Origin: Streptomyces virus StarPlatinum
Taxonomy: Duplodnaviria > Heunggongvirae > Uroviricota > Caudoviricetes
DNA: 64,000 nucleotides
Virus record (IMG/VR): IMGVR_UViG_2974628900_000001
Coordinates: 60,305 to 124,304 of that record
Strand: one strand, 5' to 3'
Of the stretch, positions 11,299 to 62,069 are shown piece after piece (the first letter of the stretch is position 1; the number at the start of each line of letters is the position of its first letter). Position numbers and translations under genes: made by a program. The notes beneath the pieces are model-generated. The model did no database searches. It saw nothing but the letters and a program-made list of their open reading frames with translations, and was not told the origin of the DNA.

Positions 11299-11826
11299 AT
11301 GCCTGCTTTAAAGCAGAACCGTAAGGAAATTGTCAAGACTCTCCTAGTGCGTGATGGTAACCTATGTCGTCACCCCGATTGTGGGTTGCCATTCACCAAG
11401 GAGAAGCCTGCTACTATCGACCACTGGATACCGTTGAGTGCTGGTGGAACTTGGGAACTAACTAACCTAGTTCTCATGCACCAGAAGTGTAATGCCGCTA
11501 AGGGCGACAAGATCCCTCTTGACGACGGCACACTTCCTGTGGTACAAAAGAAGCAGAGGGTTGATCGCGCTGTGAAGCGTGCGGCTCGTCCAGTAGTTTG
11601 TGAACGTTGTCAGTCTGGTAGGCTGCTCGGTCCAGACGAAGAGTGCGAGCAGTGTGGAAGCGGTCCTATGCCGCCAACATACCCTCAATGGTCTAAGATG
11701 AAGCCAAACGAGTGTACGCACGAAGGCATCTGGTGGTGCTGGTGCTGCATGTCTGGTATCATACAAAGACAACCAGCAAGTAAGTACGTCTTTAATGGCG
11801 GTGAGCCGGGCATAGATCCGGCGTGA
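11299..11826 (+). CDS. HNH endonuclease
   Basis: HNH core DHWIPLSAGGTWELTNLVLMHQKCNAAK plus extra Cys-rich C-terminus. Confidence 0.75.
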   Translation: MPALKQNRKEIVKTLLVRDGNLCRHPDCGLPFTKEKPATIDHWIPLSAGGTWELTNLVLMHQKCNAAKGDKIPLDDGTLPVVQKKQRVDRAVKRAARPVVCERCQSGRLLGPDEECEQCGSGPMPPTYPQWSKMKPNECTHEGIWWCWCCMSGIIQRQPASKYVFNGGEPGIDPA

Positions 11827-11835
11827 AAGGATTAA

Positions 11836-12456
11836 ATGTCTACTACTACAGCAATGTTGCTCATCCTCGACCGGTCTGGTAGCATGTCTAGTATCCAGAT
11901 GGAGGCAGAGCAAGCGCTGAATGACTTCCTGACTAAGCAGAAGGCCGTTGACGGTCGATGTGGAGTCAAGGTTGTTCAGTTCGACAGCGAAGTAGAAGAT
12001 CTATTTGGTCCAGTTTCTCTAGCTAACGCACCTGAGATCAAGATCGTCCCTCGTGGAATGACAGCACTACTTGACGCAATCGGCAAGTCTGTGACAGAAT
12101 TCAGAGAGACGATGGACCACATGCCTGTGGATAAGCGACTCGTCGTTATCATGACAGATGGTCTAGAGAATGTTTCTCAGGAGTGGAATCTAGAAGCAGT
12201 TAACAAGCTGATTAGCGAGTCAAGGGAGTTGGGCTATGAGTTCATCTTCCTTGCCGCTAACCAGGATGCAATTGCGACTGGCGCTCAAATGGGTATTCCA
12301 ACAGCTTCAAGTTTGACCTTTGCGGCTAGTCCGGCTGGTGTGCGTGGCATGGGAATGACCATGGACATGTACGTCACCAACTATCGTGAGGGTAAGTCAG
12401 CAGAATTCACTGATCAGGACAGGGCAACAGCTTCTGGCTTGACAGACGAAGACTAA
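11836..12456 (+). CDS. von Willebrand factor A (vWA) domain protein
   Basis: MIDAS motif LDRSGSM, later TDG; 206 aa. Confidence 0.7.
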   Translation: MSTTTAMLLILDRSGSMSSIQMEAEQALNDFLTKQKAVDGRCGVKVVQFDSEVEDLFGPVSLANAPEIKIVPRGMTALLDAIGKSVTEFRETMDHMPVDKRLVVIMTDGLENVSQEWNLEAVNKLISESRELGYEFIFLAANQDAIATGAQMGIPTASSLTFAASPAGVRGMGMTMDMYVTNYREGKSAEFTDQDRATASGLTDED

Positions 12457-12476
12457 GCTGCTAAAGTAGTAAATGT

Positions 12477-12560
12477 GGGTCGAAGGGCTCGGTCGGTTAT
12501 CTTACATTGGAAATAGAAAGCCATTAAATTGGCACCCGACTCCCAACACTTATCCACATT
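12477..12560 (+). ncRNA. Y-RNA-like element, copy d (GGGTCGAAGGG...CGGTTATCTTACA module)
   Basis: 5' sequence tGGGTCGAAGGGctcggtCGGTTATC resembles the conserved metazoan Y RNA 5' end (GGUCCGAAGG...GUUAUC); GGTCGG/CCGACT can pair; no T-loop. Confidence 0.4.
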
Positions 12561-12562
12561 AT

Positions 12563-12633
12563 GCGTCGGTAGTTTAATGGTAGAACGAGAGACTTCCAAT
12601 CTTTCAGCGCGGGTTCGATTCCCGCTCGGCGCT
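12563..12633 (+). tRNA. tRNA-Gly (anticodon TCC)
   Basis: Cloverleaf parsed by hand: acceptor gcgtcgg/tcggcgc, T-loop GGTTCGATTCC, anticodon loop cTTCCAa. Confidence 0.75.
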
Positions 12634-12641
12634 CTCACCAT

Positions 12642-12713
12642 TCCCCATTGGTGTAATCGGCAACACAACAGGCTCTGACCCTGTTATTCCTAGTTCGAAT
12701 CTAGGGTGGGGAG
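12642..12713 (+). tRNA. tRNA-Gln (anticodon CTG)
   Basis: Acceptor tccccat/gtgggga, T-arm cctagTTCGAATctagg, anticodon loop ctCTGac. Confidence 0.7.
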
Positions 12714-12943
12714 CTGGTCCGACTTTACGATATCGGCGGAAATAACGGAACCGGAACTCACATAATAACCATGGTAAAAGTGAGGAATGGCGAAGGGAAA
12801 TATGCGGGAAGCGATGGGTAAAACCTCCTCGGATCGACAATTTAAGGCCAGTTGCAGGCCAGCATAGAACAATAGATCTCCCTGGGTTAGGCGCTTACGC
12901 CGTCTATTGTTTGAATGCGAAGGGGTCACGCCCAAGCAACTAT

Positions 12944-13014
12944 ATGTCCTAAGTGTTACGGTAGCACGGTGGTCTCCAAAACCACAAGCGAGGGTTCAAC
13001 TCCTTCAGGACATG
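12944..13014 (+). tRNA. tRNA-Trp (anticodon CCA)
   Basis: Perfect acceptor atgtcct/aggacat, anticodon stem gtggt/accac, loop ctCCAaa. Confidence 0.8.
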
Positions 13015-13020
13015 CTCTAT

Positions 13021-13877: not shown

Positions 13878-14045
13878 ATGGCACTAGTTGGAAACGGCAA
13901 TACATGCTGGTTTCAGCGATGTGGCAACAAGCCAATCCATCGAATTAGGTACTACAACAAGACCGTAATGGTTTGCAACAAGCACAAGAATCTCGATGGA
14001 GCTGGTTGTGCGCCTAGTCGCAGAAGGCCAAAAGATTCAGCTTGA
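13878..14045 (+). CDS. small Cys-rich protein
   Basis: AAGGA RBS, 55 aa, CWFQRC...CNKHK...C. Confidence 0.4.
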   Translation: MALVGNGNTCWFQRCGNKPIHRIRYYNKTVMVCNKHKNLDGAGCAPSRRRPKDSA

Positions 14046-14077
14046 CAGACGCTAGCGGGTCTGTTAGTATTAAGTAC
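14042..14077 (+). promoter_or_regulatory. sigma-70-like promoter before tRNA cluster
   Basis: TTGACA-17 nt-TAGTAT. Confidence 0.5.
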
Positions 14078-14099
14078 AACGCAGCGACAACGCTGCTAT

Positions 14100-14171
14100 C
14101 TGGCACGGGGAAGATGGTAATCCATTCGCTTTGGAAGCGTAAGAAACCCGGTTCGATTCCGGGGTGCCAGA
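14100..14171 (+). tRNA. tRNA-Pro (anticodon TGG), copy 1
   Basis: Acceptor ctggcac/gtgccag, T-arm cccggTTCGATTccggg, anticodon loop ttTGGaa (one stem mismatch). Confidence 0.6.
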
Positions 14172-14194
14172 CTCGGACTGCAAAAGCAGTCTAT

Positions 14195-14269
14195 CGGGAT
14201 GTAGCTCAGCTTGGTCAGAGCGCGCCGTTTGGGGCGGTGAAGTCGCAGGTTCGAATCCTGTCATCCCGA
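14195..14269 (+). tRNA. tRNA-Pro (anticodon TGG), copy 2
   Basis: Acceptor cgggatg/catcccg, D-arm GCTCAGCTTGGTCAGAGC, anticodon loop ttTGGgg. Confidence 0.65.
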
Positions 14270-14275
14270 CAATTT

Positions 14276-14346
14276 GGGTCGAATGGGACACGGTTATCAC
14301 TCAATGGATAATAGGTTCGATTCCTATCGCTGGGTTCGCTCGGTAG
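14276..14346 (+). ncRNA. Y-RNA-like element, copy a (5' module plus canonical T-arm, no pairing acceptor)
   Basis: GGGTCGAATGGGacaCGGTTATCACTCAATGG then T-arm ataggTTCGATTcctat; 5' and 3' ends do not form a tRNA acceptor stem. Confidence 0.4.
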
Positions 14347-14432
14347 ATACAAGTCATCCGAGATTGTGTGTGGTAGGATGACGTTAAGGACTACACACTA
14401 TCCGTTCCCGCCATATACCTAAAGGACTTACT

Positions 14433-14954
14433 ATGACTGTACTATTGAGAACAATTCATGGTTCCCATCTGTATGGGCTCGCTCACAAGGGTTCTGACAA
14501 AGACATTTACGAAGTAATTGCAACCAGTCGAACCAAGCGTAAGCGAAACATCAAGCAAACCATTGTGAATGGTGTTGACAAGACGACGGTAGATATGTCA
14601 ACATTTATGAATATGGTTGACGAATGCGTACCTCAAGCACTTGAAGCGCTATGGACGCCGGTCGCTGAGATCGATAAGATCCACGAATTCCGGACTCAAT
14701 ATCGAGTGAATCGCGCCAAGATGAAGGAAGTATACATTCGAACCGCTCTGAACTTCGCTAAGAGTGATGGAGTAAAGCAGAGGCGTCACGCTATCCGCCT
14801 GCTTCTGAATCTCGGTGCAGCTTTGGAATACGGTAAGTTTAATCCCCAGCTTTCCAACATGGACAAGTTCATTCTTGAATCTTCCATGGGCGAGACTGGA
14901 GCATATGAGGATGTCTTTCTAGGCGTCCTTGACGAAGTACAAAAGTGGGTCTGA
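14433..14954 (+). CDS. Pol-beta-superfamily nucleotidyltransferase domain protein
   Basis: hGSxxYGL(x9)GSDxD motif (HGSHLYGLAHKGSDKD) near N-terminus; 173 aa. Confidence 0.55.
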   Translation: MTVLLRTIHGSHLYGLAHKGSDKDIYEVIATSRTKRKRNIKQTIVNGVDKTTVDMSTFMNMVDECVPQALEALWTPVAEIDKIHEFRTQYRVNRAKMKEVYIRTALNFAKSDGVKQRRHAIRLLLNLGAALEYGKFNPQLSNMDKFILESSMGETGAYEDVFLGVLDEVQKWV

Positions 14955-18754: not shown

Positions 18755-18969
18755 TGGCAATGAGCGATCAGGAAGAAGTTCGCTTTTACTACAGGCTTGT
18801 GCGTGAACTTCCTGAAAAGGAAAGGGCCTACAAGGAGATGCTTAAGAACATCCGTGGTCTTAAGGGTGCAGAAAAGGATAAGGCTTCAAGGAAAGCCCTT
18901 CCTTATGGCATGGAGATTGGTGGAATGAAGGAAACCATCAAGGCTCTAAAGAAGAAGCACAAGCTGTGA
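18754..18969 (+). CDS. hypothetical protein
   Basis: 71-aa charged ORF. Confidence 0.4.
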   Translation: MAMSDQEEVRFYYRLVRELPEKERAYKEMLKNIRGLKGAEKDKASRKALPYGMEIGGMKETIKALKKKHKL

Positions 18970-19358
18970 ACGCTGTGCTCATTGGCGTTCTACTGCATTT
19001 CGTTGGTGACTATCTAATCCAGACGGATTGGATGGCCCAATTGAAGACAAAGAGATGGACACCGGCCATTCTTCACGGAGTGACCTATGGTGCTCCATTT
19101 CTTTTTGTCACGCAGTCATGGCTAGCTCTACTAGTCATCATTGGAACGCACATCATAATTGACCATTATCGCCTGGCTCGTCATGTAGTCTGGGCGAAAA
19201 ACCAATTGGCTCCGCGCGAGTTTAGATACTCCTGGGCCGAAGGTAGCAAGACGGGATACAGAGACGATGCACCTGTGTGGCTTACCACATGGCTTATGAT
19301 CATCGCTGACAACACTATTCATATTGCTATCAATACACTAGCCATCCTCTACCTATGA
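18966..19358 (+). CDS. integral membrane protein
   Basis: 130 aa with about 4 hydrophobic helices. Confidence 0.5.
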   Translation: MNAVLIGVLLHFVGDYLIQTDWMAQLKTKRWTPAILHGVTYGAPFLFVTQSWLALLVIIGTHIIIDHYRLARHVVWAKNQLAPREFRYSWAEGSKTGYRDDAPVWLTTWLMIIADNTIHIAINTLAILYL

Positions 19359-19370
19359 GGGTGGCTTTTG

Positions 19371-19510
19371 TCATGTCACAACTGTCATGACATCGGGGTG
19401 ACATGTCACGGTGACAGTGACACTTCTGTCACGGCCTCTGTCACGCTGTCACGCATTGAAGAATGTCACGGTGTCACTCTGTCACGTGACACTTTTCTGA
19501 TTTGTCACGG
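19371..19510. repeat. array of about 7 direct TGTCACG heptamers plus inverted GTGACA copies
   Basis: catGTCACGgtg, tcTGTCACGgcc, tcTGTCACGctg, gcTGTCACGcat, aaTGTCACGgtg, tcTGTCACGtga, ttTGTCACGggc within 140 bp of intergenic DNA. Confidence 0.7.
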
Positions 19511-19694
19511 GCGCGGCGGGCCGGTGCGGAGGGGTTACGTCTTTGCGGTTCTCCATATATCTAAAGGATACAAGGAAGGAGTTGACAGAACGACAGAGAC
19601 CTGTTAAGGTAAATTATACTGGGAAGAGAAAAGAAATAGAGTACAAGAAATCGATACGGGTATCGATACAAGATAGTATATTAGGATAATATAT

Positions 19695-19949
19695 ATGAGA
19701 CTGTTCGAGCTACATAGAGACATCGACTCATCAGGAGTCAGCGGCACGGGCATCGTTGCTCAGGGCGTAGAGTTTGACAACGGGCAGTGTGCTATGTCAT
19801 GGTTGTCTCAGTGGACCTCAGTCGCCTTGTATCCAGACATTGAGACTCTGGAGGCGATTCATGGACACAATGGCAACACTCGTGTAGTATGGCTAGAAGA
19901 TGATGACGATTACTGGGCAGGCTATCAGTCAGCACCAGTTGGATCTTAA
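19695..19949 (+). CDS. hypothetical protein
   Basis: 84-aa ORF downstream of TTGACA promoter-like site and palindrome ATCGATACGGGTATCGAT. Confidence 0.45.
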   Translation: MRLFELHRDIDSSGVSGTGIVAQGVEFDNGQCAMSWLSQWTSVALYPDIETLEAIHGHNGNTRVVWLEDDDDYWAGYQSAPVGS

Positions 19950-19957
19950 GGACTCAG

Positions 19958-20122
19958 ATGTTCAACGGCTTCGGTGACTTCCTTGACATGGTAGACAGGA
20001 ATATGACACAGTGGGAAGCAGAACAAGAAAAGATCCGAGAAGCATTTGCTGAGGGTGTTACTGTTGAGTTTGATGACGGTGAAGTACGAGAGTACGGCCC
20101 GTTTGACAAGCCCTCACCTTGA
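19958..20122 (+). CDS. small hypothetical protein
   Basis: AAGGA RBS, 54 aa (MFNGFGDFLDMVDRNMTQWEAEQEK...). Confidence 0.35.
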   Translation: MFNGFGDFLDMVDRNMTQWEAEQEKIREAFAEGVTVEFDDGEVREYGPFDKPSP

Positions 20123-20188
20123 TGCTACTGTAGTTAGTAGGTGGTCAGTCGTAAGGGTTACAAAATCCGAATCGGCCCGCCACCCTTT

Positions 20189-20265
20189 GGCCTCTGGGAC
20201 TGCTAGGTTGTGGTCACTGCCCTGTCAAGGCAGACATCAGGCGGGTTCGATTCCCGTAGGGGTCG
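20189..20265 (+). tRNA. tRNA-Asp (anticodon GTC), copy 1
   Basis: Acceptor ggcctct/aggggtc (two G-U pairs), anticodon stem ctgcc/ggcag, loop ctGTCaa; variable region slightly long. Confidence 0.55.
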
Positions 20266-23877: not shown

Positions 23878-24245
23878 CATTTGAACAGAAGTTCAAGCAG
23901 GCTTTCAAGAATACTCGCAAGGCGAACGTTACTGCTAAGATGCAGGTTCAGGAGTGTTGTCGAGGCTGCATCAATAAGGAAAAGCTTGGCATGGATTCTG
24001 ACTCCGATCCGTATGTTTACACATATGCTGGTCAGGGTTCAAGGCTTCGGTTCGCGGGTGATTCAGTTGTGTATGCTGACACCCGTAACCCTGTTCCTCA
24101 CATCTACGTCTATCACGGAAACGGCGGCGGCGAGAAGTTCGCAGAGGTTGCCAAGTCTCTTGGTCTTGATGTAGAGTGGGACGGAAGTCAGTGGTCAGCA
24201 ATCGTGGTAAAGGTGCCCAATGAAGGAATGCCCGGTCTGCGGTAA
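23874..24245 (+). CDS. hypothetical protein
   Basis: 123-aa ORF. Confidence 0.45.
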   Translation: MTFEQKFKQAFKNTRKANVTAKMQVQECCRGCINKEKLGMDSDSDPYVYTYAGQGSRLRFAGDSVVYADTRNPVPHIYVYHGNGGGEKFAEVAKSLGLDVEWDGSQWSAIVVKVPNEGMPGLR

Positions 24246-24537
24246 CGAAAAGGAACTTGATGAGTTTGGCAGGCAGATCACTAATCCTGCCAAGTTTTAC
24301 AAGTGGTGTCGTGACTGCCGCCTCGCCCTGAATCGCAAGAAGCGAAACAATTTCGATGAAGGCCGAGAGCTTCGGTCAAAGACCATTCAGCTTCGTAAGC
24401 TGACCGATTCACAAGTGACAGAGGTCAAGCTTCTTGCCGAGTGGGATACTCCTTATTCAGAGATCGCTAGTCAATATGGTGTGTCTGTAACTACAATTTC
24501 AAAGGTCGTAAACAGAGGCTATGCAAACGTTTACTGA
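24220..24537 (+). CDS. zinc-ribbon + HTH putative transcription regulator
   Basis: CPVCG...CRDC then HTH-like YSEIASQYGVSVTTISKVVNRG. Confidence 0.5.
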   Translation: MKECPVCGNEKELDEFGRQITNPAKFYKWCRDCRLALNRKKRNNFDEGRELRSKTIQLRKLTDSQVTEVKLLAEWDTPYSEIASQYGVSVTTISKVVNRGYANVY

Positions 24538-60153: not shown

Positions 60154-60364
60154 GGTCAAGACGCTCAACAAGAACACGTTCTTCTCAGACTTGCTAGACT
60201 TGTCTGGCAAGACGGATGATGAGCGAGAAAAGGTTGTCAACATTATCGAAGATGTTCTAGATGGTGTTGCTTCTGGTTCAGGAATCGGCATCAAGGTAGG
60301 GGGAAAGCAGATTGCCATTCCTTCTAGCGCAATCGAATACGCAACGACCTACGAAGCCGATTGA
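60137..60364 (+). CDS. hypothetical protein
   Basis: 75 aa from internal ATG. Confidence 0.4.
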   Translation: MKIGIEVKTLNKNTFFSDLLDLSGKTDDEREKVVNIIEDVLDGVASGSGIGIKVGGKQIAIPSSAIEYATTYEAD

Positions 60365-61031: not shown

Positions 61032-61594
61032 AAAAAGCCCGGTGGCTAGAGTCCCTTCCACACATATAAGACTCATAAGACATCGTATAAGACAGACTAG
61101 TCAATAAAGACTAGACAGAAAGCTTCATACGCCTTTGTAATAAAGAAGGCGTAGTCAGACACGTCAGTTGATTAAAGCATTGTGAGAAGCCAATGCAGCT
61201 ATGCTGCTGGTCTTGTTGAGAGTGCTGGTTGGAGTGGTGAATCAGCAGGATATCTTGATGTCGAGACAATAGTTATTGTCGGCAAGCCGACTATCCACAG
61301 GTAGGTGCACAGGTTGTGGATAACTTTCTCAGATTGTTGATTATCTTGATATAGAGATACTTGTTGAAATGTAGTGTGTAATGGTGCAGGAAATCGAAGG
61401 CGAATCGTAAGCCACACATTAGATTCTAAAGTCAGAAGGGGGTTCCGGCCTTAGAATCACAGCCAACATAGCCAGCCAGCCTAATAAAGTATCGATTCAA
61501 GGGCTCAGACGGCCTCTAAAAACCAGCAAAAATAGCCCCAAAACCTGCAAAATCTGCCAATAATTGGCCCAAATCCTTTGAAAACACAGTATTT

Positions 61595-62069
61595 CCGGGA
61601 GTTTTTGCACTCATTCGTAAAGGGCATGCCAGATAGACCTTAGAATCATAGGTCAGACTGACTATTTAGCCTTAGATTCCCAGGAATTTAGCAGCCATTC
61701 GTAAAGCAGCCTACTATGACAGCCAAAGTATGCAGCCATGGCTATGCAGCCTGGATACTCAGCCAAGACAGATTGATTGTGCTGTGTCTTATATGTAGAA
61801 TTGACCCGGTGGAGTATTGGTTGTTGTTCTATGTCTTATATAGTACAAGGACACCCAATGCCACCGGCCAACAATCTCTCCTTGTCCTATGTCTTATATC
61901 GGAAAACAGAAGAAGCCTGCCAATAAAGACGGCAGGCTTTGTTGCATGTCTTATATAAGACAGACCGAACTAACAATCAGAATCTTCCGCAGATTTTAGA
62001 GCCATTCATAAATGCGCTCCGATGATCTTTGTCAGATCTTCCGGGAATTTTAGGCCCATTCGTAAAGGG
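61595..62069. repeat. four direct copies of about 30-bp repeat ccGGgAATTTTAG..CCATTCGTAAAGgg
   Basis: Copies at about 61595, 61679, 61985, 62037 (ccgggagtttttgcactcattcgtaaaggg / ccaggaatttagcagccattcgtaaagcag / cagattttagagccattcataaatgcg / ccgggaattttaggcccattcgtaaaggg). Confidence 0.7.
61785..61956. repeat. four direct repeats (C)TATGTCTTATAT spaced about 50-60 bp
   Basis: gctgTGTCTTATATgta, ttctaTGTCTTATATagt, tcctaTGTCTTATATcgg, ttgcaTGTCTTATATaag. Confidence 0.7.

Follow-up and report, generated by a model that had tools for sequence, protein, structure and literature searches.

Clustered TGTCA(C) repeats of Streptomyces phage StarPlatinum as a candidate clt-like binding site

Between genes 124 and 125 of Streptomyces virus StarPlatinum lies a 336-bp gap crowded with copies of a short motif, TGTCA(C), which raises the question of what such an array of repeats does in a virulent phage. 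We examined it in a stretch of 64,000 nucleotides (the window; positions 60,305 to 124,304 of the IMG/VR record IMGVR_UViG_2974628900_000001), which is identical to the StarPlatinum genome (NC_048721.1; 133,886 bp, linear, 48% G+C; cluster BE, Karimacvirus, Stanwilliamsviridae). Positions are those of the window, obtained by subtracting 60,304 from the record position, unless they are given as record positions. The element, which we call array 1, is almost certainly a clustered short-repeat array that, judged by its sequence, behaves like a protein-binding site. Beyond this, we tentatively read it as a predicted cis-acting, multi-copy binding site, akin to the clt loci (cis-acting loci of transfer) of Streptomyces conjugative plasmids, repeat clusters through which these plasmids have their DNA moved from one hyphal compartment into another, that would serve a plasmid-derived DNA-handling module made up of a TraB-like FtsK translocase (gene 112) and an SpdB2-family DUF2637 membrane protein (gene 32).

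Composition and conservation of array 1

The 16 cores of array 1 comprise 11 copies of TGTCA on the + strand and five inverted ones, and 13 of the 16 are extended to TGTCAC. The extended heptamer TGTCACG occurs seven times on the + strand (at 19404, 19427, 19439, 19447, 19464, 19480 and 19503), the number given in the initial annotation of this DNA, and once on the − strand (19485-19491), eight in total, while the inverted GTGACA is present four times (19398, 19411, 19417 and 19486) and not three times as stated there. The start-to-start spacing is irregular, ranging from 5 to 23 bp with 8-bp runs at 19439/19447 and 19464/19472/19480, and three pairs of cores form palindromes: TGTCATGACA (19383-19392), GTGACATGTCAC (19398-19409) and TGTCACGTGACA (19480-19491).

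It is the clustering of the motif, not its overall frequency, that sets array 1 apart. Totals for the window are not above chance (14 TGTCACG versus 8.0 expected and 45 TGTCAC versus 41 expected), whereas the local density is extreme. Fourteen of the 45 TGTCAC copies fall within 19374-19508, and the 16 cores stand against a background of 0.52 per 141 bp, which corresponds to a Poisson P of 8e-19, or 5e-14 once multiplied by 64,000 positions. When the window was simulated 300 times under a Markov-1 model, the biggest cluster had six cores. Like a clt locus, array 1 thus packs at least four repeats of 7-9 bp, rare elsewhere, into about 200 bp.

The array 1 region was found in 34 Karimacvirus records with 78-100% identity. 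In an alignment of nine Karimacvirus phages, the motif columns are 96.5% identical and the spacers 80% (Mann-Whitney p = 9e-6), and the copy number is 16-18 in eight of the nine phages and 11 in the ninth, Wofford. An array also occupies the syntenic position in Bmoc (Samistivirus) and Coruscant (Coruscantvirus), where TGTCC occurs alongside TGTCA. The pattern of conservation and the analysis of reading frames given below both agree with the earlier view of this region as a non-coding, binding-site-like repeat cluster.

Two host DNA-binding proteins were considered as readers and rejected. The consensus of the Streptomyces DnaA box is TTGTCCACA; the array motif does not contain its CCACA part, and TGTCC is absent from the StarPlatinum arrays. 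The WhiA motif is GACAC, which is found in only 2-3 of the 16 copies. No connection was found between array 1 and the regulators that had been proposed for it (the product of open reading frame (ORF) 24220-24537, and WhiB).

A second array and the plasmid-type genes 32 and 112

A genome-wide search for TGTCA(C) clusters, suggested in the initial annotation, produced just one further cluster in the whole genome. This array 2, with 18 cores at record 14210-14425, is outside the window and inside gene 32. In the AlphaFold2 model of the gene 32 protein, there are four long helices, a disordered linker (amino acids 180-242, predicted local distance difference test (pLDDT) score below 50) and a C-terminal three-helix bundle (amino acids 250-292, pLDDT about 85), and array 2 is located in the linker-coding part of the gene. 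As the motif is read there in at least two frames (GTGACA as VT, CGTGACAAG as RDK and ATGACA as MT), what is selected is the DNA motif rather than a repeated peptide. Array 2 was present in every genus examined, including Tomasvirus and Samistivirus (phages Tomas, Bmoc, Jay2Jay, Paradiddles and MulchMansion), with the GACA core common to all. Furthermore, the majority of cores read TGTCA on the + strand in both arrays (11 of 16 and 13 of 18) despite the opposite direction of transcription in the two regions.

Gene 32 is, on sequence grounds, placed in the SpdB2 family by a link that is transitive only: the DUF2637 protein of plasmid pFP1 and a protein of plasmid pSVH1 annotated as SpdB2 share 34% identity (E = 1e-12). 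The pSVH1 SpdB2 protein itself had no match in Pfam, and a search of the literature for DUF2637 gave incidental mentions only.

The protein encoded by gene 112 is laid out like a TraB-type translocase: predicted membrane helices at amino acids ~92-135 would anchor it, an FtsK motor with the Walker A motif GGGKS follows, and a winged helix (amino acids 525-602) forms its C-terminus. The best Foldseek matches of its AlphaFold2 model (pLDDT 78) are the FtsK motor structures 2ius and 6t8g (E = 2e-15). In BLASTP, it matches pSVH1 TraB (E = 2e-15) in a collinear manner through the winged helix ('DWLP..L..EL...GH..TA..L'), and its identity to the Tra proteins of Streptomyces plasmids is 35-44% over amino acids 152-514. 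Because the score of its best NCBIfam match, plasmid_TraB (E = 5e-8), is 31.9 bits, far under the 800-bit cut-off, the gene 112 protein is a distant relative of these proteins and not an equivalog. On Streptomyces plasmids, homologues of genes 112 and 32 are found 4-5 kb apart, adjoining a GntR regulator.

PMC3583192 (citing Vogelmann et al.), PMC4447253 and PMC4170104 describe TraB of pSVH1 as reading 8-bp clt repeats with helix alpha-3 of its winged helix. The clt of plasmid pWTY27 contains four TGACACC repeats that are bound by TraA (PMC3583192), and the GTGACAC of the phage is close to this sequence. The likeness extends to the layout, as Streptomyces clt loci, including those of pSVH1 (GACCCGGA), pWTY27 and pJV1 (CCGCACA[C/G][C/G]), are composed of 7-9-bp direct and inverted repeats that occupy 100-200 bp of non-coding DNA or of the 3′ part of a gene, and to the gene content, as clt-bearing plasmids, like the phage, encode a translocase of the FtsK type that has membrane helices and a winged helix, along with a DUF2637/SpdB2-family protein.

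We scanned plasmids and satellite phages for locally clustered k-mers, using the known clt of pSVH1 as a positive control. The scan recovered this clt, with four direct copies and one inverted copy of GACCCGGA directly after traB, and flagged a candidate clt at the equivalent place of pFP1, a 39-kb plasmid with 13 CTCTAC in total (Table 1). The tra gene of pFP1 is missing from the PLSDB gene table. Two further plasmids, those of Streptomyces sp. NBC_00582 and NBC_01353, the latter carrying the closest homologue of gene 32, have arrays in the linker-coding part of their DUF2637 genes; both arrays run through several frames in both orientations and lie inside tra/spd-like operons.

The same architecture occurs in satellites of BE phages. 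CGACA is repeated 22 times within the DUF2637 gene of MulchRoom, TGCGAA 14 times in that of MiniFlayer, and [G/A]GACA 15 times in that of an integrated satellite-like element related to MulchRoom, which encodes an integrase, a helix-turn-helix protein, Lsr2, DUF2637, terminase, portal, scaffold and capsid proteins and has a G+C content of ~54% in L026, the locus that is mostly element, and 61% over the whole of the L025 locus. A GACA core is thus common to the helper phages, MulchRoom and the integrated satellite. MiniFlayer and MulchRoom are reported to have no primase or replication genes, and the only two non-structural genes they share encode an HNH endonuclease and a 'membrane protein' (PMC10690885). 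The latter is the DUF2637 gene with its embedded array. The placement of an array in the DUF2637 linker-coding region is therefore recurrent, though not universal.

Considering these similarities, array 1 could function as follows. A common factor would bind the 16 TGTCA(C) sites of array 1 and the 18 sites of array 2, form a multimer on them and thereby tag the phage chromosome, which would be captured at the membrane or septum. The tagged chromosome might then be moved by ATP-driven translocation, as TraB hexamers do on 8-bp clt repeats. Binding, the identity of the binder and a role in DNA movement are what we infer here. The winged helix of the gene 112 protein is favored as the reader because repeats of this type are known to be read by the homologous domain of TraB; in favor of the C-terminal three-helix domain of the gene 32 protein is that satellites without a translocase keep the DUF2637 gene and its embedded array. 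The recognition helix of the gene 112 protein (LTARQLHE.LG) is near-invariant across genera, as is the GACA core, and covariation therefore cannot single out the reader. A helper factor acting in trans is also conceivable, given that helpers, MulchRoom and the integrated satellite have the GACA core in common.

Several observations weigh against such a clt-like site. First, characterized clt loci adjoin or overlap the 3′ end of tra or lie inside the tra/spd region, whereas array 1 begins 2,470 bp past the gene 112 stop codon, separated from it by 12 genes and tRNAs, and array 2 is ~61 kb from this gene. Second, plasmid clt loci have 4-9 repeats, and the phage arrays are denser, with 16 and 18 copies (16-18 for array 1 in eight of the nine aligned phages). 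Third, array 1 is missing from Jay2Jay and probably from Tomas, and is therefore dispensable, at least with array 2 present. In both phages the gene next to the DUF3307 gene encodes a hydrolase or purple acid phosphatase and takes the place of the terminator and array 1, and in Jay2Jay the promoter and the homologue of gene 125 are retained 3′ of the inserted gene. Array 1 therefore behaves as a separable cassette. Fourth, BLASTP of the gene 32 protein against pSVH1 SpdB2 gives an E value of 0.33, which is not significant, and searches with the sequence and structure of its C-terminal domain found no relative among DNA-binding folds, so that a DNA-binding role for this domain is suggested by its three-helix shape alone. 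Fifth, the satellites have arrays yet no translocase gene, and the TGCGAA of MiniFlayer is unlike the motif of its helper; one TraB-like reader is therefore not enough to account for all the observations. Finally, no clear embedded array was found in five other DUF2637 genes (those of pFP1, pSVH1 and loci L024, L030 and L031). Apart from these points, clt hosts are plasmids, whereas the arrays reside in a virulent 134-kb phage, and no GntR regulator of the traR type is found near the phage array, unlike in the plasmid modules.

A second plasmid element offers a partial parallel to array 2. The sps site is a 12-bp palindrome present one to three times within the spdA2 gene of pIJ101 and of plasmids related to it (PMC4170104). 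Like array 2, it is a site associated with a spread/stability protein, it lies within a coding region and it gives rise to a recurring amino acid motif (SRDD/E compared to VT/RDK/MTK). It is, however, bound by the product of its own host gene, whereas the phage arrays consist of 16-18 copies of a 5-8-bp unit and one of them is intergenic.

Origin, operator and partition-site alternatives

The strongest rival explanation, given that satellites depend on a helper and that the lambda ori lies inside gene O, is that the arrays consist of replication-origin iterons. In this view, an initiator of the phage would bind TGTCA(C), the replisome would be loaded there, and the GACA-type arrays of satellites would recruit the replisome of the helper. 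We regard this as unlikely, although several features point in its direction. Repeats in both orientations look like iterons; as in iteron origins (lambda ori, SPP1 oriL in gene 38, pWTY27), there are many of them and they are short; and as with SPP1 oriL and oriR, a second copy is found elsewhere in the genome and one copy lies within a gene, in a segment that encodes a linker, the position that array 2 shares with the lambda ori. A stretch of 28-34% G+C is found 100-250 bp downstream of array 1. The GACA core is common to helper and satellites, and it is satellites described as devoid of primase and replication genes that carry an array in their shared membrane-protein gene (PMC10690885).

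Other features do not support an origin. Iteron units are 18-22 bp long, whereas those of the arrays measure 5-8 bp and are irregularly spaced. The AT-rich tract near array 1 falls on the promoter and 5′ leader of gene 125, the flanks of array 2 are not AT-rich (G+C 0.40-0.58), leaving it without an unwinding element, and Jay2Jay does without array 1. Neither array interrupts the monotonic rise of the cumulative GC skew, whose extremes are at the transcription switches at 17 kb and 121 kb; the strand-composition switch expected of an origin is thus not seen at the arrays, a weak argument where the skew of a phage follows transcription. No known initiator family matched the neighbors of either array, and the gene 32 protein, a four-helix membrane protein, has no similarity to initiators. 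On plasmids, DUF2637 genes sit in the tra/spd operon rather than near rep, and pSVH1 derivatives with a deleted spdB2 were still maintained and transferred (PMC4447253). Furthermore, a UvsX-like recombinase and junction resolvases are among the phage gene products, and recombination-dependent replication could, we infer, serve the satellites without any origin.

Alternatively, a regulator of phage or host could coat the TGTCA(C) repeats together with a TGACA in the −35 hexamer of the downstream promoter and thereby time the expression of gene 125 and the genes that follow. This operator or activator array is, in our estimate, improbable. The promoter is of the sigma-70/HrdB type and consists of TTGACA (19582-19587), a 17-nucleotide spacer and TAAGGT (19605-19610) with a TGn extended −10 (TG at 19602-19603). 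The TTGACA hexamer noted initially as promoter-like thus turns out to be part of a full promoter, its −35 hexamer contains an inverted TGACA core, and array 1 ends 73 bp 5′ of it. The promoter is strong and conserved, and it occurs together with the array in Karimacvirus, Bmoc and Coruscant. The short direct and inverted units also resemble omega heptads. The omega repressor of pSM19035 binds heptads of the sequence WATCACW, and in the heptad arrays of pSM19035 and inc18, as in array 1, 7-bp units with a TCAC core stand in direct and inverted orientation 5′ of a promoter. The omega heptads, however, are contiguous and overlap the promoter, whereas the units of array 1 are irregular (5-23 bp), not contiguous, and stop 73 bp before the −35.

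The wider promoter family also speaks against an operator. At least 30 matches to TTGACA-N17-TAnnnT are found in the window, versus 0.53 expected, between 12439 and 63795 (for example at 14042, 17111, 19582 and 20103), every one oriented with the genes, and among them only the 19582 promoter is preceded by an array. The family suggests that the tRNA-rich right arm is densely transcribed from promoters of the host-sigma type. In Jay2Jay the promoter and the gene are retained without the array, the twin array is intragenic and has no promoter context, and no ribbon-helix-helix protein or other regulator was found among the neighboring genes. The contiguous, phased units that an operator would place at its promoter, wherever that promoter occurs, are thus not what we observe. 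The earlier suggestion of a transcription-factor site or an iteron array therefore fares unevenly, in that iterons are still a live rival and a simple promoter operator fits poorly.

A centromere-like or ParB-related site, which would bind host ParB or a phage protein with a ParB N-domain and act as a decoy or in positioning, is highly improbable. The actinobacterial parS sequence is TTTCACGTGAAA, and TGTCACGTGACA matches 10 of its 12 inner base pairs. Proteins composed of the ParB N-domain only are encoded by gene 12 of StarPlatinum and by a gene on the NBC_01353 plasmid that is in the same operon as DUF2637. However, this parS-like palindromic arrangement involves one of the 16 copies, most copies are isolated half-sites in direct orientation, the gene 12 protein has no detectable DNA-binding domain, and the satellite and plasmid motifs are unrelated to parS.

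Array 1 does contain an open frame, ORF 19368-19607, of 79 amino acids with a TTG start, and genes of 48-79 amino acids are annotated at this place in several GenBank records (Table 1). The longest ORFs over array 1 in the nine phages have differing frames and cover differing column ranges, their peptides are mere translations of the motif (CH/VT/LSR), and the alignment has frame-breaking gaps of 1, 2, 4-5 and 11 nucleotides. Because no frame is kept among the nine phages, ORF 19368-19607 is an artifact, as had been proposed, and the small genes annotated over the array in GenBank are probably spurious for the same reason. An ordinary small protein-coding gene, or a chance accumulation of repeats (clustering P ~1e-18), can therefore be set aside.

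Surroundings of array 1 and significance of the arrays

From left to right, the gap between genes 124 and 125, in which the annotation of StarPlatinum itself places zero genes, contains a terminator-like hairpin, array 1, a GC-rich box, the promoter and a 5′ leader with a palindrome (Table 1). The hairpin extends over the gene 124 stop codon, is invariant in sequence in the nine-phage alignment and is predicted to end the upstream transcription unit. In the GC-rich box, base composition and G-runs are kept among Karimacvirus phages and the internal sequence varies.

Table 1. Coordinates of array 1, its neighbors and related loci. Positions refer to the window unless a record, accession or locus (L) is named.
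Feature	Position	Strand	Remarks
Array 1	19369..19509 (141 bp)	both orientations	16 TGTCA/TGACA cores
Gene 112, TraB-like FtsK/SpoIIIE translocase, 603 amino acids	15088..16899	+	annotated 'FtsK-like'; candidate array reader
Gene 32, DUF2637 membrane protein	record 14061-14945	−	passes Pfam DUF2637 threshold
Gene 124, DUF3307 membrane protein	18966..19358	+	last gene 5′ of array 1; synteny anchor
Terminator-like hairpin and T-run	19340..19372	+	10-bp stem AGCCATCCTC...GAGGGTGGCT; terminator scan
GC-rich box GGCGCGGCGGGCCGGTGCGGAGGGGT	19510..19535	.	between array 1 and promoter; ~85% G+C; local GC 0.66
Sigma-70/HrdB-type promoter TTGACA-N17-TAAGGT	19582..19610	+	invariant in nine-phage alignment
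Palindrome ATCGATACGGGTATCGAT = ATCGATAC-GG-GTATCGAT	19650..19667	+	predicted 5′ untranslated region of gene 125
Gene 125, hypothetical, 84 amino acids, phrog_7499	19695..19949	+	first gene of unit 3′ of array 1
Annotated 'hypothetical proteins' of 48-79 amino acids over the array in relatives	L003 805-948; L005 758-985; L006 764-1003; L008 775-1014		GenBank
Terminator/array 1 site replaced (Jay2Jay, Tomas)	L017 1690-1735; L018 1690-1845; L033 200-360		
Candidate clt of pFP1 (NC_006912.1)	L021 27713-27831		CTCTAC, 4 direct + 3 inverted, right after tra stop
Plasmid of Streptomyces sp. NBC_00582, DUF2637 linker-coding part	L022 8269-8750		CGGAACG, ~14-18 copies
Plasmid of Streptomyces sp. NBC_01353, DUF2637 linker-coding part	L023 9410-9900		GAGCGCGC/GCGCTCAC, ~16 copies
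Integrated satellite-like element, MulchRoom-related	L025 5324-18089; L026		GCA_029893855.1, Streptomyces chromosome

The palindrome in the leader is perfect, as first described, with arms of 8 bp, one more than reported, around a 2-nucleotide center. Its counterparts in related phages keep the two ATCGAT hexamers, and the 6-7 nucleotides between them are variable. An RNA hairpin at this position found little support: the fold is weak (z = −1.7), and six invariant pairs and one G-U change provide no informative covariation by which an RNA element could be distinguished from a DNA palindrome. The sole match in an Rfam scan of 19000-20200 was a chance hit to mir-32 (E = 0.42).

Three other repeat clusters were observed. 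TGTCTTATA occurs six times (0.29 expected) at 61785-61962 and also at 61086-61094, with four direct copies spaced 47-58 bp apart, the last of which forms the palindrome TGTCTTATATAAGACA. This cluster is near the outer end of the right 12.2-kb terminal repeat, its left copy being at record 402-572, and may function at the terminus, in packaging or as an early promoter. Five direct copies of TGTACC are found within 65 bp at record 11350-11415, in the terminal repeat outside the window, and one inverted copy at 11519; this iteron-like cluster upstream of HNH gene 26 is a candidate for an alternative origin or translocase site. In MiniFlayer, GTGTCTGTCCT is repeated four times at 12330-12410 within the coding region of gene 13 (11911-13017), a layout that resembles an origin inside an initiator gene. 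A Pfam search with the 368-residue hypothetical protein encoded by gene 13 gave nothing.

Elements of this kind, in which translocases or initiators are bound by arrays of repeats, are already known. What is new is (i) the presence of two such arrays in a virulent phage, alongside TraB-like and SpdB2-like genes, (ii) the recurrence of the array-in-DUF2637-linker layout in phages, satellites and plasmids, and (iii) a motif specific to each element. No description of the arrays was found in papers on BE phages and their satellites, which mention the FtsK-like gene and the 'membrane protein'. The k-mer-cluster criterion flags unannotated candidate clt loci on plasmids, such as that of pFP1. Should array 1 prove to be an origin or operator instead, no cis-regulatory element would have been mapped earlier in this phage family, and its recognition would correct spurious genes in GenBank.

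If array 1 is clt-like, this family of virulent phages would possess a complete plasmid-style set for the translocation of double-stranded DNA, namely the translocase, the SpdB2-type protein and the cis site. The DUF2637 gene and its embedded array, as the sole non-structural module kept in MiniFlayer and MulchRoom, would give a handle on the satellites. More speculatively, BE phages may have taken over the TraB/SpdB2 machinery and clt-like arrays to pump replicated genomes across hyphal cross-walls and into adjoining compartments, with satellites hitch-hiking by means of their own DUF2637 genes and the GACA-type arrays embedded in them; we hold this scenario to be rather unlikely as it stands. 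If it were true, arrays in the region coding for the disordered DUF2637 linker would constitute an unrecognized class of cis-elements of plasmids, phages and satellites, and a virulent phage could spread within the mycelium without an extracellular step, which bears on how phages handle the compartmented, multigenomic mycelium of Streptomyces.

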